Source: Minisyncoccota bacterium
GTDB taxonomy: Bacteria; Patescibacteriota; Minisyncoccia; Phycocordibacterales; Phycocordibacteraceae
Assembly: GCA_035531495.1 (NCBI GenBank)
Contig: DATKSU010000017.1
Location: 2,668-66,667 of the forward strand
Direction of reading: 5' to 3'
DNA length: 64,000 nt
A program made the position numbers and the translations under genes. This document shows, piece after piece, positions 1 through 62,861 of this stretch; position 1 is the first letter of the stretch; each line of letters begins with the position of its first letter. The notes beneath the pieces are model-generated. The model was given only the letters and a program-made list of their open reading frames with translations, was not told the origin of the DNA and searched no databases.

Positions 1-2
1 CG

Positions 3-89
3 AGCACGGGCGCGGCCGGCATCAGGATCGTCGACGTGCATGCCGCGTCGTCGAGCTCCGCGGCCGAGCAGACGGTCATCCCGTTTTAA
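3..89 (+). CDS. 3' end of an upstream gene (partial, product unknown)
   Basis: Frame 3 reads through the window edge to ...AAEQTVIPF followed by TAA at 87-89. Too short to assign a product. Confidence 0.2.
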   Translation, partial: STGAAGIRIVDVHAASSSSAAEQTVIPF

Positions 90-123
90 CGGTGCGGGCA
101 GCGTAGCGATTTCATAATTTTTC

Positions 124-6849: not shown

Positions 6850-7281
6850 ATGAACAAACTCTCCCTTGCTGGTCCCGATCTTCGCACGCTCGCGCTCAGC
6901 GTCATCTCGTTTCTCGCTGCTGCGCCGGTTGCATTCGCCCAAGTACCGGCGAATACCACCAATACGGGCGCGGGCAGCGTCAACCTGGTATGGCTGCAGT
7001 ACTACCGGGACACCATCGTCTGGGTTATCAACTCGGTCATCGTCCCGGTCCTAATTGCAGTGGCGTTCATCGTCTTCCTCTACGGAGTCTATAAATATTT
7101 CATCCAGGGGGCAGCGAGCGATACCGAGCGGGAGACGGGCCGGAAATTCGTCATGTGGGGCGTGATCGGCATGGTCATCATCGTATCCTTCTGGGGCGTC
7201 GTCAACATCGTCAAGGATACGCTCATCCCCTCGACCGCGAACAACACCGCCCCCGCATACCCGACGCTGCCGACCCAGTAA
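6850..7281 (+). CDS. TrbC/VirB2-type pilin-like protein, paralog 4
   Basis: The ATG at 6850 (MNKLSLAG…) gives a clean signal peptide; the track start at 6796 is an upstream extension. Motif …VPVLIAVAFIVFLYGVYKYFIQG…KFVMWGVIGMVIIVSFWGVVNIV. Confidence 0.5.
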   Translation: MNKLSLAGPDLRTLALSVISFLAAAPVAFAQVPANTTNTGAGSVNLVWLQYYRDTIVWVINSVIVPVLIAVAFIVFLYGVYKYFIQGAASDTERETGRKFVMWGVIGMVIIVSFWGVVNIVKDTLIPSTANNTAPAYPTLPTQ

Positions 7282-7373
7282 GGCCGCCAGGGATTATCCC
7301 CACACGGGCTCGAATGGCGTTGACCGGGCTTGCGGGGAAGCTAGAATAGTACTGTTATCCAATTAACGTCTGT

Positions 7374-7742
7374 ATGAAAAAAGCAATCACTCTTACGGGG
7401 GCGCTCGCGGTGTTCGCACTGCCGCTCGTCTCGTTCGCGCAGGTGAACAACCTCTCGGATGTCGGTTCCCTCATCATCAACATCATCAATAACATCCTCG
7501 TCCCGGTCATCTTCGCGGTGGCGTTCATCGTCTTCCTCTGGGGCGCATTCGACACCTTCATCCTCGGCGCGACGAATGATACGGCGAAGGAGAAGGGCAA
7601 GAGCCTCATGCTCTGGGGCCTCATCGGCTTCTTCGTAATGGTGTCGGTCTGGGGCCTCGTGAACATCCTCACCGGTACGATCACCTTCGGCAACAACACC
7701 GGCCCGTCGAGCGTTCCGACCTCCGGCACGACCGTCCAGTAG
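7374..7742 (+). CDS. TrbC/VirB2-type pilin-like protein, paralog 5
   Basis: Signal peptide MKKAITLTGALAVFALPLVSFAQ. Motif …VPVIFAVAFIVFLWGAFDTFILG…SLMLWGLIGFFVMVSVWGLVNIL. Confidence 0.5.
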   Translation: MKKAITLTGALAVFALPLVSFAQVNNLSDVGSLIINIINNILVPVIFAVAFIVFLWGAFDTFILGATNDTAKEKGKSLMLWGLIGFFVMVSVWGLVNILTGTITFGNNTGPSSVPTSGTTVQ

Positions 7743-7754
7743 CCCTCGCGCTAC

Positions 7755-8042
7755 ATGTCCGTCCTCAACGCCTTTCTCTCGAAGGTCACTGTTCAGATCA
7801 TCAATCCGCTCATCCTGCTCCTGGCCGCCGGCGCGTTCGTCGCCTTCTTGTGGGGAGCGTTTGAGTTCATCCGCAACGGCGGCGACGAGAAGAAGCGTGC
7901 GGATGGGCAGCGAGCAATCCTGTGGGGCATCGTCGGGCTCGTCATTATCTTCGGCGCGTACGGTATCATCAATGTCGCCATGAACACCTTCAACCTCCAG
8001 CCGAACGGGCAGTCGACCATCCAACAGGTCGTCTCCCCATAA
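7755..8042 (+). CDS. TrbC/VirB2-type pilin-like small membrane protein, paralog 6
   Basis: 95 aa. Motif …AGAFVAFLWGAFEFIRNGGDEKK…AILWGIVGLVIIFGAYGIINV. Confidence 0.5.
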   Translation: MSVLNAFLSKVTVQIINPLILLLAAGAFVAFLWGAFEFIRNGGDEKKRADGQRAILWGIVGLVIIFGAYGIINVAMNTFNLQPNGQSTIQQVVSP

Positions 8043-8077
8043 GCCGACCGTAAGAGTAGATCATACGGATAAGAAAA

Positions 8078-8100
8078 GAGGCCGCGCATCGCGCGGCCTC
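8078..8100. terminator. bidirectional terminator hairpin between convergent genes
   Basis: Hairpin gaggccgcgcatcgcgcggcctc lies between the + strand pilin array and the - strand gene ending at 8123. Confidence 0.5.
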
Positions 8101-8122
8101 GTGCATGAAGGTACCTCTTGAT

Positions 8123-8935
8123 TTACTGAGCATAGGCGTATGACACGACATTCGGGTCAGCCTTTCTCATGTTCGTCACGTACACGTACGGCATGTCGCC
8201 GCTCGGACAGGGGTTCCCCCCTATCACAAACGAGGACTCGTGCCCGTCTCGGTAGACGCAGTGTATACGGACATCTTCTCCATCGAACGTTACTCTCATC
8301 TGTTGCGGCACAGGGATGTTCGCCGACCTGCCTCCCCGGGGGAGCATGACTTTCGGCCATGAATCCACGGATTGGCTCGTGAGCGGGATGCTTGCCTTCG
8401 GTGCGTATGCCGCGCTCGGCGCTTTTCCGGATAACAGCCACGAGAGGGCCGGCAGCACGAAGAGCATCGCAAGCACCACCCACACTGCTACCCATTGGTG
8501 CTGCTTCATACGCTCTTGCCACTTCGGGATTAGCAAACCGATGACCCCGAGCGAAGCAACGAGCGTCGCTAATATTAGCCCGACGGCAGCCCAGTGCTTC
8601 CACCACAGGGAGCTTATCGCGGCCATGGTCGGGGGATTTTTTATATAGACCCCGCTCCAGTACCACCCCTCTCCGAGGATGATGGCGAGCAGCACCACCA
8701 AGCCCATTTTTTCCCAAGTGAAGGTCTCCTTGAGCTTCTCGAGGATTTTCTTTGGTTCGTCTCTCGGGCTTGTCGTCGCGGTGACGGTACGCTGCCCCTT
8801 CTCGGGGTTCTTGGCATTCATCTCCGCCTGAACGTTCGCGAGCCGCGTCGAGTGCGGCTGCCTGATACGCAGTACCACAAGAATACCGAGCACGAACAGC
8901 ACGAACGATGCAACGGGAATGATAACGACCATCAT
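8123..8935 (-). CDS. polytopic membrane protein with C-terminal extracytoplasmic domain, co-transcribed with the SPFH protein
   Basis: About four hydrophobic helices and a Cys-containing C-terminal domain. Its start overlaps the SPFH stop (ATGA), so the position suggests an NfeD-like partner. No sequence motif confirms this. Confidence 0.45.
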   Translation of the reverse strand: MMVVIIPVASFVLFVLGILVVLRIRQPHSTRLANVQAEMNAKNPEKGQRTVTATTSPRDEPKKILEKLKETFTWEKMGLVVLLAIILGEGWYWSGVYIKNPPTMAAISSLWWKHWAAVGLILATLVASLGVIGLLIPKWQERMKQHQWVAVWVVLAMLFVLPALSWLLSGKAPSAAYAPKASIPLTSQSVDSWPKVMLPRGGRSANIPVPQQMRVTFDGEDVRIHCVYRDGHESSFVIGGNPCPSGDMPYVYVTNMRKADPNVVSYAYAQ

Positions 8936-48836: not shown

Positions 48837-48844
48837 AGATGGAA

Positions 48845-51643
48845 ATGGAATCGGCGCCGACATTGTCCACGCCTGAGGCGGAGCTCGCGTACCTGCGCGA
48901 ACAGGTCGCGCGCAAGGAGGCCGAACTCTCCGCCGCCGGCCGCGCGGACGCGGCTGCCGAGCGCCCGCGGCTCGTCGCCGAGGAGCTGCGCGCGCACCAA
49001 GCGGCGCCAGCCGAGATACTCGCGTCCGCGTACCGCATGAGCGCCACCGAGGCCGCGAGCGCCGCCGAGCGCATTCTCGCCGAACTCGACGTCGGCGACG
49101 AGGCGGACGCGATACGGCAGATACAGCAGGTGCTCGAGGAGAAGGGCATCAAGAACGCGCTCGCCGTGCTCGAGAAGCTCCAGAATCCGCGCATCGGCGA
49201 CGACCTGCACCGCTATCTCGTGCGCTACATCGCAGCCGGATTGCCAATGGCCGCCGGCGGCGAGAAGCTGCCGCAGTTCGCCGCGCTCCGCATGACGCTC
49301 TACGAGATCGCCTTGCCGGAACCGAAGGGCGCGGACGGCGGCGGGCGCGAGAAGTCGCTCAAGGAGCTCATCTCTGCGATGGAGCAGTTCTACGCGGGAC
49401 TCCTCTCGGTCGCCGAAGCGGCGCCCGGCGAGCCCGGCTACTACGCGCTCGAGCTTGCCGTTCCGGCGGAGAGCCCGGAGCTCCAGTTCTACGCGGCGAT
49501 TCCGAACGGCAAACGCAACCTCTTCGAGAAGCAGCTCCTCGCGATGTTTCCGGACGCGCATCTCGTCCCGCAGCCGCTCGATTACAACGTCTTCGCGGCT
49601 GGCGGCGCGTCGCTCGCGTCGGTCGCGCGGCTGGCGGCGAACCCGGCGCTCCCGCTCAAGGATTACGCCGATTTCGATTACGACCCCTTGAACGCCGTCA
49701 CGAACGCCTTCGCGAAGATCGAGCACGTCGGCGAAGGCGCCGCCATCCAGTTCATCATCGAGCCGCGCGGCGAGCGCCACGTCGAGCACTACCGGAAAGT
49801 CCTCCATGCGCTCCAGAAGGGTGAGACGGTCGCGCAGGCGCTCCGGACGCCCGGGACCGTGTTCGGCGAGCTCGCGCGCGACGTCGCGAAGACGTTCTTC
49901 TCGCGGACGCCGGACGAGAAAGGGAAGGAGAAAGCGAAGGAAGACGCAGCGCGTCGCGTCGAGGAGAACAAGCCGACCGCCGAACAGGTGGAGCGCAAGA
50001 TTTCCGCGCCCATCGTCGGTACGACCATCCGCCTCGTGACGTCGTCGAAAGACGCGACGAAGGCGGCGCAGGTGCTCGGCGAGCTTGAGGCGGCATTCAA
50101 CCAGTTCGCGAACACGCGGGGCAACCGGCTCGAGTTCGCGCGCATGACGCCCGGGCAAAAGGGCGCCGCGCGCGTCTTCGAGGACTTCTCGTTCCGCCTG
50201 CCGGAGGCCACCGGGCTGCCCTTATCCTTGCGCGAGCTCACGGCGCTCTACCACTTCCCGCCGTCGGGCGTCGCATCGTCGCCGCACCTGAAGCAGGCGC
50301 GCTTCACGCACGCGCCCGCGTCCCTCTCGCTCTCGAAGGAGGGCGCGCTCCTCGGGACGAATAGTTATCGCGGCCACGACACGGCGGTGTACCTTGACCC
50401 AGAGGACCGGCTGCGGCACCTCTACGTCGTCGGTCAGACGGGTACCGGCAAGACAGGTCTCATGAAGAACCTCATCATCCAGGACATCCGCCGCGGCGAA
50501 GGCTGCTGCTTCATCGATCCGCACGGTAATGACATCTTCGACATCCTCGCGGCCGTGCCGCCTGAGCGCTATGAGGACGTCATTTACTTCGATCCGGCTG
50601 ACCTCTCACGCCCATTCGGCCTCAATTTCCTCGAATACGAGCATTCGCGCCCCGAGCAGAAGACGTTCATCGTGAATGAGCTCCTCGCCATCTTCCGCCG
50701 CCTGTATGGTGACGTGCCGGAGAGCATGGGGCCAGCTTTCGAGCAATACTTCAGGAACGCGACCCTGCTCGTCATGGAAGATCCCTCATCGGGCTCGACC
50801 ATCCTCGATATCGCGCGTGTGCTCTCGAATGCGGAGTTCCGTGCGCTGAAGCTCGCGAAAAGCATGAACCCCATCGTGAACCAGTTCTGGACGGAGATAG
50901 CGACGAAGGCCGGCGGGGAAGCGGCGCTTGAGAACATTGTCCCGTACATCACGAACAAGTTCGACGACTTCACGGCGAACGACTTCATCCGACCCATCGT
51001 CGGGCAGCAGGAATCGTCGTTCAAGTTCCGCGACGTCATGGACAACCGCAAGATCCTCCTCGTGAACCTTTCGAAAGGGCGGCTCGGCGAGCGCAACGCG
51101 AACCTGCTCGGCCTCGTCGTCGTCGGCAAGCTCTTCATGGCCGCGCTCGCGCGCGCCGACAATCCGCGCGCGGCATATCCGCCGTTCTACCTCTACATCG
51201 ACGAATTCCAGAACGTCACGACCGATTCCGTCCCCGGCATCCTCTCCGAGGCGCGCAAATACAAGCTCGCGCTTTCGATGGCGCACCAGTTCCTCGCGCA
51301 GCTCGAGGAGAAGACGCGCGACGCCGTCTTCGGCAACGTCGGCAACATGACGATCTTCCGCGTGGGCGAGGAAGACGCCGAATTCTTCGCCAAGCAGTTC
51401 GCGCCAGTCTTCGGCGCGCCGGATTTCGTGAGCATCGAGAACAGGAGCGCCTATGTGAAGCTGCTCGCGCACGGCGTGCCGCAGAAGCCGTTCGATATCC
51501 GCACGCCGGACCTGCTGGCGGGCAATCCGGCGCAGGTTGACGAGCTTATCCAGCTTTCCGCGCTCACTTACGGCCGCGACCGTGCTACTGTGGAGACGAC
51601 GATCCGCGAACGCTACCTGGGCCGCGCGGCAGCTGCTATATGA
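48845..51643 (+). CDS. FtsK/HerA-superfamily P-loop ATPase, TraD/VirD4 (T4SS coupling protein)-like with TraD_C-like tail; no TM anchor
   Basis: Walker A VVGQTGTGKTG followed by CFIDPHGND, Walker B YLYIDEFQN, and C-terminal …ARKYKLALSMAHQFLAQL…. The N-terminal 480 aa are soluble and unassigned. Confidence 0.65.
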   Translation: MESAPTLSTPEAELAYLREQVARKEAELSAAGRADAAAERPRLVAEELRAHQAAPAEILASAYRMSATEAASAAERILAELDVGDEADAIRQIQQVLEEKGIKNALAVLEKLQNPRIGDDLHRYLVRYIAAGLPMAAGGEKLPQFAALRMTLYEIALPEPKGADGGGREKSLKELISAMEQFYAGLLSVAEAAPGEPGYYALELAVPAESPELQFYAAIPNGKRNLFEKQLLAMFPDAHLVPQPLDYNVFAAGGASLASVARLAANPALPLKDYADFDYDPLNAVTNAFAKIEHVGEGAAIQFIIEPRGERHVEHYRKVLHALQKGETVAQALRTPGTVFGELARDVAKTFFSRTPDEKGKEKAKEDAARRVEENKPTAEQVERKISAPIVGTTIRLVTSSKDATKAAQVLGELEAAFNQFANTRGNRLEFARMTPGQKGAARVFEDFSFRLPEATGLPLSLRELTALYHFPPSGVASSPHLKQARFTHAPASLSLSKEGALLGTNSYRGHDTAVYLDPEDRLRHLYVVGQTGTGKTGLMKNLIIQDIRRGEGCCFIDPHGNDIFDILAAVPPERYEDVIYFDPADLSRPFGLNFLEYEHSRPEQKTFIVNELLAIFRRLYGDVPESMGPAFEQYFRNATLLVMEDPSSGSTILDIARVLSNAEFRALKLAKSMNPIVNQFWTEIATKAGGEAALENIVPYITNKFDDFTANDFIRPIVGQQESSFKFRDVMDNRKILLVNLSKGRLGERNANLLGLVVVGKLFMAALARADNPRAAYPPFYLYIDEFQNVTTDSVPGILSEARKYKLALSMAHQFLAQLEEKTRDAVFGNVGNMTIFRVGEEDAEFFAKQFAPVFGAPDFVSIENRSAYVKLLAHGVPQKPFDIRTPDLLAGNPAQVDELIQLSALTYGRDRATVETTIRERYLGRAAAAI

Positions 51644-54308: not shown

Positions 54309-54842
54309 ATGAAACCAACCCCAACCGGCATCGCCGTCGCGCTCGCGCTCGTCGTCGTCATGACTTATTTCATCTTCCCGGGCCTCTGGCCGTTCAGTCC
54401 GGCAGCTTCGCAGGGCGCCGCGACCGCCGGGGCGCAAGAGCAGGCCACTTCTACCCAATCAACCTCAACAACAACCGCAACCACCATGCCGAACGATATT
54501 TCCAACCAGCTTCAGGTAACCGATGAGACAGTCGGCACCGGCGCGACCGCCGAACCAGGCGACACGGTTACGGTGAATTACGTAGGCGCGCTCACGAACG
54601 GCCAGGTGTTCGACGCCTCCGTCGATCATGGAAACTCCGGCTACACCTTCACACTCGGGGTAGGGCAGGTCATTAAGGGCTGGGACGAAGGTATCGTCGG
54701 CATGAAGGTCGGCGGCAAGCGCGACCTCGTCATCCCGCCGTCCTTGGCCTACGGGGATCAGGCTGTCGGGAACGTCATCCCGGCCAATTCGACCCTCGTC
54801 TTCCAGGTCGAACTCCTGTCGGTGAAGAAGCCGGGCCAGTAG
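54309..54842 (+). CDS. FKBP-type peptidyl-prolyl cis-trans isomerase (membrane/secreted)
   Basis: TATACT 8 nt upstream. N-terminal anchor. FKBP core …VTVNYVGALTNGQVFDAS…GWDEGIVGMKVGGKRDLVIPPSLAYG…. Confidence 0.85.
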   Translation: MKPTPTGIAVALALVVVMTYFIFPGLWPFSPAASQGAATAGAQEQATSTQSTSTTTATTMPNDISNQLQVTDETVGTGATAEPGDTVTVNYVGALTNGQVFDASVDHGNSGYTFTLGVGQVIKGWDEGIVGMKVGGKRDLVIPPSLAYGDQAVGNVIPANSTLVFQVELLSVKKPGQ

Positions 54843-54908
54843 CAGCGTGAGCGTCCGCTCTGCCGCGCGATTCATGTCTGCGCGCGCGTCTGCTACCGTG
54901 GTTCGTAT

Positions 54909-56153
54909 ATGAGTGCCATCTCGTTCGAGATAGAGAAGCGCGCGGGCGGCGGAGCTGCCCGCCCCGCCGCAGGCGGGGCGCGTGCGGGCGTCCTCACGAC
55001 CCCGCACGGCGCCATCCGCACGCCCGCCTTCACGCCGGTCGGCACGAAGGCGAACGTGAAAGGTATCCTGCCGGAGCAGCTGCGCGCCCTCGGCGCCGAA
55101 GCCGTCCTCGCGAACACCTACCACCTCTACCTGCAGCCCGGCGAAAAAATCGTCGAGAAAGCGGGCGGCCTCGGCCGCTTCATGGGGTGGGAGGGTCCGA
55201 TGCTGACCGACTCTGGGGGCTTCCAGGTCTTCTCGCTCGGCGCCGCTTTCGGCAAGACCATTTCGAAATTCGTCGCGGAGGAAGCGCCGCACGAAGAAGC
55301 CGTCGCGATTTATGACGAGGAGGTCGCGACGGCGCACGGTCAGCTCGCCACGATCGACGACGAGGGCGTGACCTTCACTTCGCACCTCGACGGCTCCCTG
55401 CACCGCTTCACGCCCGAGCGTTCGGTTGAGATCCAGCATGCGCTCGGCGCCGACATCTTCTTCGCGTTCGACGAGTGCACGTCGCCCTCGGCGCCATACG
55501 ACTACCAGCGCGAGGCGATGGAGCGTACGCATCGCTGGGCGGAGCGTTCGCTCAAAGCGCATCGCCAGAATCTCGGCGCGGATAAGCGGCAGGCCATTTT
55601 CGGCATCGTGCAGGGCGGCCGGCATGAGGACCTGCGCCGGGAGTCGGCGCGCGAGATCGCATCCTTGGGTTTCGACGGCATCGGCATCGGCGGTTCCTTC
55701 AGCAAGGAAGACATGCGCGGCGCGCTCCAGGCAGCGGTCGGGGAATTGCCGGAAGAGCTCCCGAAGCACTTCCTCGGCATCGGCGAGCCGGGCGACATCC
55801 TCGAGGGCATCGCGAACGGGATGGACCTCTTCGACTGCGTCGCAGCGACGCGTATCGGCCGCCACGGCTCCGTCTACACGAAGCACGGCATCATTCATTT
55901 GCGTAATGGGGAATTCAAAGGCGATTTCAGTCCGCTTGACCCGGAGACCTCCGTGCCGGGTACAGAGCCATTCACGCGCGCTTACGTATCGCACCTCGTG
56001 CGTGCGCGCGAACTCACGGGCTCTGTCATCTGTTCGATTCACAATGTCGGCTTCATACTGAAACTCGTCGCCGATGCCCGCGAGGCCATCCTCAACGGAC
56101 GGTTCGACGCGTTCCGCGAGGACTTCTCGCGAGCGTACTACGGCACGGGATAA
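54909..56153 (+). CDS. tgt: queuine tRNA-ribosyltransferase
   Basis: …GVLTTPHGAIRTPAFTPVGTKANVKG… with TIM barrel and C-terminal Zn site (CxCxxC…H). Confidence 0.9.
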   Translation: MSAISFEIEKRAGGGAARPAAGGARAGVLTTPHGAIRTPAFTPVGTKANVKGILPEQLRALGAEAVLANTYHLYLQPGEKIVEKAGGLGRFMGWEGPMLTDSGGFQVFSLGAAFGKTISKFVAEEAPHEEAVAIYDEEVATAHGQLATIDDEGVTFTSHLDGSLHRFTPERSVEIQHALGADIFFAFDECTSPSAPYDYQREAMERTHRWAERSLKAHRQNLGADKRQAIFGIVQGGRHEDLRRESAREIASLGFDGIGIGGSFSKEDMRGALQAAVGELPEELPKHFLGIGEPGDILEGIANGMDLFDCVAATRIGRHGSVYTKHGIIHLRNGEFKGDFSPLDPETSVPGTEPFTRAYVSHLVRARELTGSVICSIHNVGFILKLVADAREAILNGRFDAFREDFSRAYYGTG

Positions 56154-56188
56154 AAAAGAGCCGCCTAGGGCGGCTCGGCGAGCGCATA

Positions 56189-56476
56189 TCACCGGCGTTT
56201 CCTCATCACGATTCCCGCATCATCGAAGCCTCCCAGCGCGATGATGAAATGCATGATGACGATTGCCGCTATCGCGCACAGGATGAAGAAGAAAATGGGC
56301 GGATATATGCACGCCAATACGACGAGAGCACAGTACAGAGCCATCGCCGTAAGCAGCCGATTGAATTCCCTCTCGCGCGGGTGGAGCGAAAGCATGAGTC
56401 CTCCGACTTCGGATTCTGGCGATGTTGCCGATAGCATAGTATGGTTCCAGCACTGCATGTCAAGGAATGATTTCAA
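56189..56476 (-). CDS. possible small membrane protein
   Basis: Hydrophobic ORF antisense to the track's extended uvrB N-terminus. The real start is probably an internal Met. Weak. Confidence 0.2.
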   Translation of the reverse strand: MKSFLDMQCWNHTMLSATSPESEVGGLMLSLHPREREFNRLLTAMALYCALVVLACIYPPIFFFILCAIAAIVIMHFIIALGGFDDAGIVMRKRR

Positions 56477-58514
56477 GCTTCATATGCCTTTCCAGCCGGC
56501 AGGAGACCAGCCGCAGGCCATCCGCGCGCTCGAGAAGGGCCTTGCAGAGGGCATGCGCCACCAGACCCTGCTCGGCGTGACGGGCTCGGGGAAGACCTTC
56601 ACGATGGCGAACGTCATCGCGGCCTACGGCAAGCCGACCTTGGTCCTCGCGCACAACAAGACCCTCGCTGCGCAGCTCGCGCAGGAGTATCGCGAATTCT
56701 TCCCGGAGAACGCCGTACACTACTTCGTCTCCTATTACGACTACTACCAGCCGGAGGCGTATATCGCGCAGTCGGACACGTATATCGAGAAGGAGGCGAT
56801 GATAAACGCCGAAATAGACCGCCTCCGCCATGCAGCGACGCAGGCGCTCCTCACGCGACGCGACGTCATTATCGTCGCGTCGGTCTCCGCCATCTACGGT
56901 CTCGGCTCGCCCGAGGAATACGAGAAGGTGCACATCAAGGTCGCCCGAGGCGGGACGGAGAATCGCGCCGCGCTCATCCGGAAGCTCGTCGGCATCTACT
57001 TCGAACGCACGAACGCCGACCTTTCTCCGGGGCAGCTGCGCGCCGTTGGCAACGCGCTCGAGGTGATGCCCATCAACGAGCGCATCATCTATCGCATCGC
57101 CTTCGGCGAGGATACGGTCGCGCGCATCGACCTCCTCGACCCGGTCTCGCGCGCGAAGCTCTCCGAGCCCGCGTCCGTCTTCATCTTCCCGGCCAAGCAC
57201 TTCGTGACGAGCGAAGTCGAGCGCAATCGCGCGATAGAAGACATCAAGGCCGAGCTCGAGGAGCAGCTCGCAAAATTCAAGCGGGAAGAAAAGCCGCTCG
57301 AAGCCGAGCGGCTCAAGCGCCGCACGCTTTCCGACCTCGCCATGATCCGCGAGATCGGCTACACCTCTGGCATCGAGAACTATTCGCGCCACTTCGACGG
57401 CCGCAAGGCCGGCGAGCCGCCCTCGACCCTGCTCTCGTATTTCCCGCATACGAAAGACGGCGCGCCGGATTTCCTCACCGTTATCGACGAATCGCACGTG
57501 ACCATCCCGCAAATAGGCGGCATGTACGCGGGTGACCGCTCGCGCAAGGACGTCCTCGTCGAGCACGGGTTCCGGCTCCCGTCGGCGCGCGATAACCGGC
57601 CGCTGACCTTCGAAGAGTTCGAGGCGCGCGTGAATCCGTCCATTTATACGAGCGCGACGCCCGCGAATTACGAACGGAAGCACTCCGAGCAAGTCGTCGA
57701 GCAGATCATTCGGCCGACGGGTCTCATCGACCCCGAACTCGTCCTGCGGGAAGTCACGGAGACCGGGCAGTACCCGGGCCAGATTGCGGACTTCATCAAT
57801 GAAGCGGAGACGGTCATCAAGCGCGGCGGACGCGCGCTTGCGACGACTCTCACGAAGCAGATGGCGGAGGACCTCGCGGAATTCCTGAAGAAGCGCGGCA
57901 TGAAGGCCGAGTACCTCCACTCGGACGTAAAGACCATCGACCGCATCGACATCCTCACGAAGTTCCGCCGCGGGACGTTCGACATCCTCGTCGGCGTCAA
58001 TCTCCTGCGCGAGGGGCTCGACCTGCCGGAAGTGGAGCTCGTCGGCATCCTCGACGCGGACAAGGAAGGGTTCCTGCGCAGCGAAACCTCCCTCATTCAG
58101 ACCATCGGCCGCGCGGCGCGGAATGTACTGGGCCGCGTCATCCTCTATGCCGACGTGATGACGGGATCCCTCGAGCGTGCCATCGGCGAGACGAACCGCC
58201 GCCGGGAGAAACAGCTCGCGTACAACGAGGCGCACGGCATCACGCCGAAAACCATTAAGAAAGAGATTCACGACATCGCCGAGTCGATGCGCAGCGAACA
58301 CCAGAAGACGGTCGACGAGCTCCTCGCCCTCGACACCATCGCGTATAAGGATGACCCGAAGGCCTTCATCACGATGAAGCGCGAGGAGATGACGGCCGCG
58401 GTCGAGAAGCTCGACTTCGAAACGGCCGCGCTCATCCGTGATGAAATCTACAAGCTTGAAGGAAAGGAACCGAAGGCGAAACCGCGCAAGCGCAAGCCGT
58501 TTTCGGGCGCATAG
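56457..58514 (+). CDS. uvrB: excinuclease ABC subunit B
   Basis: ATG at 56457 (MSRNDFKLHMPFQPAGDQPQAIRAL…), replacing the track start at 56241. Helicase motifs and a C-terminal UVR domain (…FETAALIRDEIYKLEG…). Confidence 0.93.
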   Translation: MSRNDFKLHMPFQPAGDQPQAIRALEKGLAEGMRHQTLLGVTGSGKTFTMANVIAAYGKPTLVLAHNKTLAAQLAQEYREFFPENAVHYFVSYYDYYQPEAYIAQSDTYIEKEAMINAEIDRLRHAATQALLTRRDVIIVASVSAIYGLGSPEEYEKVHIKVARGGTENRAALIRKLVGIYFERTNADLSPGQLRAVGNALEVMPINERIIYRIAFGEDTVARIDLLDPVSRAKLSEPASVFIFPAKHFVTSEVERNRAIEDIKAELEEQLAKFKREEKPLEAERLKRRTLSDLAMIREIGYTSGIENYSRHFDGRKAGEPPSTLLSYFPHTKDGAPDFLTVIDESHVTIPQIGGMYAGDRSRKDVLVEHGFRLPSARDNRPLTFEEFEARVNPSIYTSATPANYERKHSEQVVEQIIRPTGLIDPELVLREVTETGQYPGQIADFINEAETVIKRGGRALATTLTKQMAEDLAEFLKKRGMKAEYLHSDVKTIDRIDILTKFRRGTFDILVGVNLLREGLDLPEVELVGILDADKEGFLRSETSLIQTIGRAARNVLGRVILYADVMTGSLERAIGETNRRREKQLAYNEAHGITPKTIKKEIHDIAESMRSEHQKTVDELLALDTIAYKDDPKAFITMKREEMTAAVEKLDFETAALIRDEIYKLEGKEPKAKPRKRKPFSGA

Positions 58515-58525
58515 ATAAAATGAAG

Positions 58526-58544
58526 CGGCGCATACATGCGCCGC
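58526..58544. terminator. bidirectional terminator hairpin
   Basis: gcggcgcat-a-catgcgccgc between the convergent uvrB and the 58565-58879 gene. Confidence 0.5.
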
Positions 58545-58564
58545 GGTGACGAGGTTGGAGAATT

Positions 58565-58879
58565 TTAGAACGGAATGTCATCTTCCATTTCTAGATTCTT
58601 CGGAGCAACAATGTTCAAGATATCCTGCCTTTGCTGGGCCGAGAGTTCGCCAAGAATTTCGCGGAGTTCGCGGGCTTGACCCGTTGCGATTTTCTGTAAG
58701 ATCTCCCCCGGCACATCAGTGATAGATTCCCATGCCCCGATCTCGATGATTTCGGTTGCTTGCCCTTCAGCGCCGAAAAGACGGCAGATCCTCTCGGCGA
58801 GCTCCACACTCGTACAGAAACCGAGATGTGTCCCGCCACCGCCCTGTCCGACTAGCTTGATCTCTTGTATCGGTTTCAT
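58565..58879 (-). CDS. hypothetical 104-aa protein ending in the SSB-type acidic tail …MEDDIPF
   Basis: Divergent from uvrA, the position usually held by ssb. The body (MKPIQEIKLVGQGGGGTHLGFCTSVELAERICRLFG…) is not an OB-fold SSB. Confidence 0.45.
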   Translation of the reverse strand: MKPIQEIKLVGQGGGGTHLGFCTSVELAERICRLFGAEGQATEIIEIGAWESITDVPGEILQKIATGQARELREILGELSAQQRQDILNIVAPKNLEMEDDIPF

Positions 58880-58999
58880 CCGCTACCTCCTGTATCTATG
58901 GACCGCAGGAGTTATACGCTCCTTGACGGCCCTCTGCAACTGACTCGAGCAATGCTATAGTGCTGTACGTACCTGCCCCGCCACGGGCAGGGATTTTGC

Positions 59000-61616
<2,617 letters not shown>

Positions 61617-61639
<23 letters not shown>

Positions 61640-62861
61640 GTACCGGCTGCCGGACGTCCCGGGAGTGTACCTGTTCAAGCAGGGTCGGAATGTTCTCTAC
61701 GTCGGCAAGGCGACGTCGCTCGCCGACCGCGTACGCTCGTATTTCGATGATGACCTCATCGCGACGCGCGGGCCGCGCATCGTGGACATGGTGACGCGCG
61801 CGGACCGAATCGCGCATGAGACGGCGCCGACCGTGCTCGAGGCGCTCGTGCGCGAGGCGGCGCTCATCAAGCGGTACCAGCCGCCCGCGAACGTGGAAGG
61901 GAAGGACAACTCGTCATTCCTCTATGCCGTCGTCACGAAGGAAGACGTTCCGCGCGTCCTTCCGCTGCGCGGCAAGGATATCGACGTAAAGGGGAAACGC
62001 GCGGCAGACAGCACGAAGTTGAAAGCGCTCTACGGCCCGTTCCCCTCGCTCGCGCAGCTGCGCGAAGCGCTGCGGCTCATCCAGCGCATTTTCCCGTTCT
62101 TCGATACGCTGCGGCCGGTCGCGTACGCGGGCAAGCATCAGCGCGCGAAAATAGAGTTCAACAAGCAGCTGCGGCAGTACCCGCAGGCCGTCGATCCGAA
62201 GGCGTACCGAGCGACCATCCGCAACGTCGAGCTCCTCCTCGCCGGGCGCGGACGGCAGCTGCGCGCGAAGCTCGGGCGGGAGATGAAGGCGGCAGCGAAG
62301 GCGGAGCGGTTCGAAGACGCAGCGCAGCTCCGCCGCGAGCTTTTCGCCCTCAATCACATCCAGGACGTCTCGCTCATCAAGGACGAGTTCATCGAGGACA
62401 CGCGCCGCGGAGCGGCGCGCGGCGGGCGCATCGAGGCATACGACACAGCGCATCTCTCCGGAACGAACGCCATCGGCGTGATGACGGTCGTCGAGGACGG
62501 TGCGCCCGTGAAGAGGGAATACCGCGTCTTCCGCATTCGCGGATTCCGGAAGAATGACGATATAGCGTCTCTCAAGGAAATCCTCTCACGCCGGCTCGCT
62601 CATTCAGAGTGGTTGTACCCGCGCGCCATCGTCGTGGACGGCGGGAAGACGCAGAAGAAGGCCGCCGAGACGGTGCTCGCGGACGCGGGCGTCGGCATCC
62701 CCGTTGCAGCCGTCGTGAAGGACGAGCGCCATCGACCGCGCGAGGTCATCGGCGCGCGCCGGGCCGGCATCACGGAAGCCGATGCCGTTCTCGCGAATGC
62801 CGAGGCGCACCGCTTCTCGCTTTCCCGCCACCGCCGTGCGCGTTCGCAGTCACTGCGGTGA
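61617..62861 (+). CDS. uvrC: excinuclease ABC subunit C (short form lacking the C-terminal (HhH)2 domain)
   Basis: GIY-YIG N-terminus (VPGVYLFKQGRNVLYVGKA), UVR motif (…FEDAAQLRRELFALNHI…) and RNase H-like endonuclease region (…EAYDTAHLSGTNAIGVMTV…). Ends at 414 aa. Confidence 0.85.

Follow-up and report, generated by a model that had tools for sequence, protein, structure and literature searches.

A small gene lying between uvrB and uvrA encodes a 104-residue protein whose end reproduces the C-terminal tip (SSB-Ct) of SSB, the bacterial protein that binds single-stranded DNA. It was found in a 64,000-nucleotide stretch of a Minisyncoccota bacterium (assembly GCA_035531495.1, contig DATKSU010000017.1, positions 2,668 to 66,667), hereafter called the window. 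The tip is the best-conserved part of an unannotated ten-member protein family of the Candidate Phyla Radiation (CPR), and the body which carries it shows no similarity to SSB. The interpretation towards which the analysis leans slightly is that the protein would be a small, soluble and acidic mimic of the SSB tail, working as an adaptor or as a competitor, on a scaffold that does not bind DNA. The translation, MKPIQEIKLVGQGGGGTHLGFCTSVELAERICRLFGAEGQATEIIEIGAWESITDVPGEILQKIATGQARELREILGELSAQQRQDILNIVAPKNLEMEDDIPF, starts with MKPIQEIKLVGQGGGGTHLGF and ends in NLEMEDDIPF before the stop codon. Its NCBI entry, from a metagenome-assembled genome (MAG) of Candidatus Paceibacterota, is hypothetical protein VMV50_03470 (HUY62815.1), and the identical protein is present on 8 contigs from several assemblies.

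A preliminary description of the window had noted a 104-residue protein ending in MEDDIPF, likened to the SSB tip. The open reading frame (ORF) exists as described, and it is the sole ORF in the window with a C-terminus of the [DE][DE][ILVM]PF type. DDIPF is the C-terminus of nine of the ten family members, despite an identity between their bodies of 39% on average (range 24-78%). Expressed as majority fraction, conservation reaches 0.98 over DDIPF, the top five-column block of the alignment, followed by 0.84 for VWES(E) and a mean of 0.57 for the body. The family consensus of the last nine residues is xDFEDDIPF, and the corresponding tip of E. coli SSB is MDFDDDIPF (PMC10018359, PMC7913777). 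Members encode the tail with different synonymous codons (GAT/GAC, ATT/ATC, CCG/CCT and TTC/TTT); the tail is therefore conserved at the protein level and not through recently shared DNA. Bacterial SSB (PF00436) and the family thus have in common an extreme C-terminal acidic tip D-D-[IL]-P-F that is predicted to be disordered and comes after a break containing Pro. The identical DDIPF end occurs in canonical SSBs from this bacterial group, as seen in the OB-fold (oligonucleotide/oligosaccharide-binding fold) SSB of Candidatus Kaiserbacteria (OGG47684.1), which ends in ...EENINPDDIPF. The motif could in principle have arisen by convergence and address a partner outside the SSB network, namely a CPR-specific partner or a protease or chaperone adaptor reading a C-terminal degron. 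Short C-terminal motifs are reusable, one family member tolerates a terminal Arg and the genomic contexts are mostly unrelated to DNA. However, eight of the nine tip positions, upstream D-F included, match the E. coli SSB-Ct consensus, which makes convergence unlikely, and the SSBs of the same group share the end; this explanation is considered improbable.

The family is extremely rare. Among 5.8 billion proteins, a word-indexed search recovered the protein itself and nothing else, a phmmer search run exhaustively against 1.84 billion cluster representatives returned two distant relatives (E 1.5e-5 and 1.6e-4), and two rounds of profile search led to the ten members of 99-120 residues, i.e. 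nine relatives and the window protein. All members that could be placed belong to the Patescibacteria (CPR): P0001 is from Paceibacterota, and in the long-form clade the proteins encoded next to the family members share at least 90% identity with one from Candidatus Moranbacteria. The gene is genuine and evolves under purifying selection, with dN/dS values, where calculable, of 0.09-0.74 at saturated synonymous sites, not exceeding 0.41 in all pairs but one. Motifs of the AGGAG/GGAGG type are located 5' of all eight homologues with available DNA (GAAAGGG in P0002, GAGGGGGAAAG in P0010). No member was matched in Pfam or NCBIfam (E<=10), PHROG, PADLOC or the PDB sequences; in particular, none of 12 sequences matched a PADLOC defence-system profile at E<=10, and profile searches of the PDB gave insignificant helical matches alone (uteroglobin 2e-3, XPA 0.06). 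The region contains nothing above noise in Rfam, and no description of the family was found in the literature. When the family alignment was used to scan contigs of genomes and metagenomes, no family member was recovered, true SSB tails dominating the matches. A family-specific DNA pattern was also designed, which matches every family locus with available DNA except L008/L009 (WDS variant) and none of 323 other loci; it had no match in 2.9 million IMG/VR viral contigs.

The body was modelled with AlphaFold2 (AF2) from a six-sequence family alignment (A2), giving a mean predicted local distance difference test (pLDDT) of 70, the single-sequence model being poor (pLDDT 57). In this model the body is shown to be a beta-beta-alpha-beta domain followed by a helical hairpin (Table 1), with no five-stranded OB barrel. 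A GQGGGG hairpin connects strands 1 and 2 and a Gly-rich loop lies between helix 1 and strand 3; both loops are dispensable, as they are deleted in P0010 and P0011. The conserved core consists of I-Y-x-V, G-F-C, L-A, h-x-V-W-E-S-x-x-D-L-P and the helical pair. Within the VWES..D.P motif that follows strand 3, W50 and D55 are invariant, V49, E51, S52 and P57 reach 90% conservation or more, and aromatic residues are conserved at positions 5 and 21 as well. The first helix of the pair is longer in six homologues, by an insertion of 14 residues in P0003, P0006, P0007 and P0008 and of 7 residues in P0010 and P0011. The helical body initially predicted is thus confirmed for the two helices of residues 58-91, but not for the three-stranded N-terminal domain (residues 2-49).

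A cryptic SSB or OB fold was ruled out by the AF2 topology, by Foldseek searches of the PDB (best E 0.78, no SSB or OB among the matches) and by the Pfam SSB profile (PF00436), which matched no member even at E<=10. The protein does not belong to the SSB family. SSB has an OB-fold core that binds single-stranded DNA (ssDNA) and a long disordered Gly/Pro/Gln linker, whereas a ~90-residue acidic body of beta-beta-alpha-beta plus helical type is found here, without a long linker; the tip alone is shared. The isoelectric points of the members are 4.2-4.7 overall and 4.1-4.6 for the N-terminal domain, which contains 8-12 Asp/Glu versus 4-6 Lys/Arg. This acidic composition of all members argues against direct DNA binding, and the protein itself is unlikely to bind DNA. 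The idea of a diverged, minimised SSB is not supported, in view of the lack of body similarity to SSB and of the acidity of the whole family. Since neither the search for an OB fold nor the comparison of tails between homologues contradicted it, the definition of a non-SSB protein with an SSB tip holds as far as computation reaches.

The same data bear on the possibility of an unconventional non-OB ssDNA-binding protein acting as an alternative SSB, whose invariant Trp and aromatic residues would bind ssDNA while the tail recruits partners; Deinococcus DdrB is a conceptual parallel. The full SSB-Ct tip, the invariant W50 together with the aromatics conserved at positions 5 and 21, and the lack of an ssb gene in the window are in its favor. 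Such a function is nevertheless very doubtful for a protein that is acidic throughout, including its N-terminal domain, and whose domain comprises just ~55 residues without OB topology. Canonical SSBs are moreover present in related CPR lineages, and the family is far too rare for the replacement of an essential SSB.

The SSB tip is a docking peptide for at least 17 genome-maintenance partners (PMC10018359, PMC10164576), and its terminal Phe and carboxylate enter a hydrophobic/basic pocket of the partner (PMC10018359, PMC10164576, PMC3045619). In the tail-mimic mechanism, the flexible tip of the small protein would likewise insert its terminal Phe and carboxylate into the SSB-Ct pocket of SSB-interacting enzymes. 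The enzymes of E. coli with such a pocket include ExoI, RecJ, RecO, RecQ, RecG, PriA, DnaG, Ung, RNase HI, RadD and the translesion polymerases. As the scaffold has no ssDNA-binding core, the small protein would act off DNA, and this could occur in two modes. As a competitor or regulator, it would titrate SSB partners away from SSB-coated ssDNA. As an adaptor, it would use the conserved VWES..DLP face of its N-terminal domain to tether these partners to another target, for which the gene neighbourhood designates UvrAB and MutY as candidates. Competing for SSB partners or delivering them, both envisaged in the preliminary description, are roles suggested by the motif. A narrower version can be proposed only tentatively, in which the protein would be a dedicated CPR adaptor, never bound to DNA and solely presenting SSB-Ct off DNA, so as to gate the access of enzymes of repair and recombination to SSB-coated ssDNA or to hand them to excision-repair complexes (UvrAB, MutY).

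Another conceivable target of the tail is the OB domain of SSB itself, at its tip-docking site, with effects on DNA-binding mode, cooperativity or condensation. The tail of the family copies the SSB tip almost perfectly, and intramolecular binding of the SSB C-peptide to the OB domain is known (PMC3936761). This intramolecular interaction is however weak and electrostatic, and it leaves unexplained the strict conservation of I-P-F, which is the signature of binding to partner-enzyme pockets; little probability is consequently given to this target.

A number of observations weigh against the tail-mimic mechanism. The family amounts to 10 sequences in 5.8 billion. No SSB-like sequence or SSB-Ct-binding enzyme was located within the 64-kb window. 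The tip starts ~5-10 residues after the helix of residues 81-91, so that its reach and accessibility differ from those of SSB, in which ~50 residues of linker separate the core from the tip. One member, P0007 (L331 2119-2478), has the C-terminus DDIPR (codon CGC) in place of DDIPF; a terminal Arg should abolish pocket binding, and this protein is either a natural loss-of-tip variant or the product of a single-contig assembly error. Lastly, five of seven independent genomic contexts consist of housekeeping genes (trmD, aminoacyl-tRNA synthetase, rpsU, HIT and PGK).

The neighbour of the small gene at lower positions is uvrB (+), whose stop codon is at 58514; uvrA (+) starts with the ATG at 59000 and is followed by uvrC, the identities of all three being established with Pfam. 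Being on the (-) strand, the small gene is convergent with uvrB and divergent from uvrA, as initially reported; the start codons of the divergent pair are 120 bp apart. This location had been called an ssb-like position. The comparison with E. coli K-12, where ssb is divergent from uvrA, was checked and is correct, but it does not extend to this organism. In CPR relatives retrieved by means of the UvrB of the window, the common array is TGT-uvrB-[gap]-uvrA-uvrC, in which the gap measures ~0.1 to 2.5 kb and contains unrelated genes (L253 and L255-L260 compared with window positions 58515-58999), and ssb was found within 5 kb of uvrB at none of 80 uvrB loci. A meaningful ssb-like position was thus ruled out, the gap being a variable slot with unrelated genes, none of them ssb, and the homologues of the small gene being located elsewhere. 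Among the cargo of this slot are a histidine kinase and a response regulator in L260, a 78-80% identical relative, an MGMT-like gene in L257 and a HIT gene in L259.

The small gene has 52% GC and a GC content at third codon positions (GC3) of 0.57, in a window of 64% GC where the neighbouring genes display GC3 values of 0.83-0.90. The genomes carrying homologues have 52-54% GC, near that of the small gene. The most economical reading is that of a lineage-specific insertion into the variable uvrB-uvrA slot. Neither integrase, flanking repeats nor insertion scars were observed at the locus.

The closest GTDB genome (L251, UvrB 79% identical) contains an 82-aa ORF in the same slot and orientation, at L251 7110-7358 (-), corresponding to P0009/P0026 (Patescibacteria MAGs REEB44 and others). 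It displays a GGGAGGG ribosome-binding site, a GQHAGGT motif and the C-terminus ESQEDLPL. The alignment with the family spans the C-terminal 40 residues of this ORF end-to-end, at an hhalign probability of just 18-22%, and its profile E-value is circular because the ORF was included in the query. To judge from these sequence features, it may be a degenerate positional orthologue in which the F of the tip has become L.

Three homologues (P0003, P0006 and P0007) lie downstream of a mutY-like HhH-GPD/FeS glycosylase gene, in the same orientation and 67-525 bp from it; the match of this glycosylase to TIGR01084 (E ~1e-66 to 1e-68) scores under the trusted cut-off. The order mutY-like gene, family member, (84-aa ORF), AI-2E permease, lgt is kept across these three divergent genomes. 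The 84-aa ORF, without family match, follows the family member at L006 10411-10665 and L008 10419-10673 and is absent in L331. In L008, a diversity-generating-retroelement pair (bAvd and reverse transcriptase, 7246-8805) lies directly upstream of the mutY-like gene. The remaining homologues adjoin trmD, an aminoacyl-tRNA synthetase gene, rpsU, a HIT gene or PGK. Excision repair is hence represented in two of about seven independent contexts (uvrB/uvrA and the mutY-like clade; rough binomial p ~0.04), a weak association with repair neighbourhoods that is suggestive but not decisive. These two independent associations favour an excision-repair target for the adaptor mode, without proving it.

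The genomic setting also raises the possibility of a selfish gene derived from a phage or an integrative element, i.e. an anti-host or anti-defence decoy which recently entered the uvrB-uvrA gap and has no role in host repair. Its foreign composition (52% GC and GC3 0.57 versus 64% and about 0.85), its location in a variable intergenic slot and the differing contexts of the homologues would fit such an origin, as would the frequency of host SSB tips on phage proteins. A resemblance of the N-terminal fold may point in the same direction. In Foldseek searches of predicted viral structures (BFVD), the N-terminal ~52 residues superpose on many phage ORFans of 50-60 residues, some of them annotated DUF7336 or DUF1482, with target-normalised template modelling (TM) scores of 0.65-0.80, root-mean-square deviations of 1.5-2.8 A and E-values of 2e-3 to 5e-2, the query having a pLDDT of 70 and a very simple fold. 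Conversely, the family-specific pattern, which misses the WDS variant of L008/L009, found nothing in the IMG/VR contigs; PHROG and PADLOC gave no match either; the neighbours are housekeeping genes, devoid of integrase, repeats or insertion scars; and the mutY-X-AI-2E-lgt synteny (X, the family member) is stable in three divergent genomes. A mobile-element origin is on the whole rather unlikely. It is in any case compatible with the tail-mimic mechanism, from which it differs only in the beneficiary.

Several known systems can be compared with the family. Phage SSB-like proteins with the host tip, such as Bas52_0087 (FDDDIPF), have been proposed to compete for ssDNA-processing factors of the host, ExoI among them (bioRxiv 10.64898/2026.04.29.721553). 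The likeness lies in the presence of the host SSB tip on a protein other than the host SSB; these proteins are however OB-folded and phage-encoded, whereas the CPR family is non-OB and resides among cellular housekeeping genes, with no pattern match in IMG/VR. They are the nearest described cases. Many phage ORFs of 77-130 aa also end in DDIPF in the IMG/VR loci L158, L174, L181, L147 and others, e.g. MAYEIKELTGSLFDNNRKEKDTHPNKTG..., and are probably miniature phage ssDNA-binding proteins with the host tip. In phage T7, the SSB gp2.5 and the helicase-primase gp4 have Phe-terminated acidic tails that dock onto T7 DNA polymerase at shared basic patches. Gp4 is a conceptual precedent of a non-SSB protein sharing an SSB-type tail for the same docking site, but it is a large enzyme working on DNA, while the CPR protein is a tiny scaffold with no recognisable activity. 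The small phage domains DUF7336 and DUF1482 may resemble the N-domain in fold (TM 0.65-0.80 over ~52 residues, with E-values of just 2e-3 to 5e-2). Their Pfam profiles gave no match at E<=10, no paper mentioning DUF7336 was found, and unlike the CPR family these proteins are not annotated with a helical extension or a tip.

A looser, hand-made DNA pattern retrieved, among the matches listed, only SSBs and other DDIPF-ended proteins. The non-SSB proteins with this end among the metagenome matches listed comprise a DnaB-family helicase (L030 1628-3031), an SF2 ResIII/Helicase_C helicase (L067 3880-5562), a CAP12/Pycsar-type protein with TIR and winged-helix domains (L078 8398-9273), an IrrE/M78 peptidase with zinc ribbons (L052 766-1872) and a DUF669 protein (L069 3883-4311). 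Tip grafting is therefore not unique to the CPR family, and the DDIPF ends of the helicases, the TIR-domain protein and the peptidase suggest that it is wider and under-described. These other carriers possess recognisable enzymatic or DNA-related domains, in contrast to the CPR family, which has none and whose tip is thus its only interpretable feature. What is unusual here is that a cellular CPR genome encodes the tip on a scaffold for which no further function can be recognised.

The features of the small gene and of its product are collected in Table 1.

Table 1. Features of the small gene and of the encoded protein; positions are those of the window.
Feature	Residues	Position	Strand	Basis and remarks
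Protein-coding gene, 104 aa + stop	1-104	58565..58879	(-)	ORF and sequence reading; member, in the window, of the ten-member unannotated CPR family
N-terminal globular domain	1-57	58709..58879	(-)	AF2, block pLDDT 69-84
Strand 1	2-10			AF2
Strand 2	16-22			AF2
Helix 1	25-35			AF2
Strand 3	41-49			AF2
Two amphipathic helices	58-77 and 81-91	58607..58708	(-)	AF2 secondary structure
Helix 2	58-77			AF2
Helix 3	81-91			AF2
Disordered end	95-104			AF2, pLDDT <50
Nine-residue acidic tip LEMEDDIPF		58568..58594	(-)	Best-conserved family block; pLDDT <50, predicted disordered
Shine-Dalgarno GGAGGT		58885..58890	(-)	Sequence reading; 5 nt 5' of the ATG
Weak promoter-like element: TTGCAG, 17 nt, TATAAC		58911..58939	(-)	Own sequence reading
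Intrinsic-terminator-like G+C-rich hairpin GCGGCGCATGTATGCGCCGC, then T-run TTCATTTTAT		58515..58544 (hairpin + T-run 58544..58525)	(-)	Sequence scan

The start codon is the ATG at 58877-58879 (-). The TTGCAG/TATAAC element upstream of it is a weak candidate promoter, below the threshold of the consensus promoter scan, in which no promoter was called at 58911..58939. The terminator-like hairpin is located ~20 nt past the stop codon, between the convergent small gene and uvrB. On the other side, a perfect 7-bp hairpin (CCTGCCC-CGCCAC-GGGCAGG) at window positions 58972-58991 (+) is followed by GATTTTGC and ends 9 nt before the uvrA ATG; it may be an operator or attenuator of the uvrA leader. Five independent contigs with the gene (L001-L005) all terminate inside uvrA, four of them 240-300 bp from the start of the small gene and one 1.56 kb away, which hints at strain-level heterogeneity or at a recombination boundary in the 5' part of uvrA. 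Long antisense ORFs of 575-907 aa cover uvrA, uvrB and tgt (58955-61678, 56460-58301 and 54465-56192, all (-)); their GC content at first codon positions exceeds 0.8, and they are artefacts of high-GC codon bias and not genes. Positions 48839-51643 (+) encode a 934-aa protein with a TraG/TraD C-terminal domain, a VirD4-like coupling protein, in what is otherwise a housekeeping CPR window (GyrA, ClpB, RelA/SpoT, TopA, SerRS, ParB).

Genome maintenance in bacteria has the C-terminal tip of SSB as its central docking peptide, which has also been proposed as a target for antibiotics. If the narrower version, a dedicated CPR adaptor, is true, the family would represent the first case in which a cellular, non-OB protein mimics the SSB hub through a short linear motif. 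If the tail-mimic mechanism is true, cells, not phages alone, would regulate or re-route the SSB interactome through motif mimicry. The protein would then also provide a compact natural reagent of ~100 residues to probe SSB-tail pockets, as well as an entry point to the organisation of DNA repair in the genome-reduced and poorly understood CPR bacteria.

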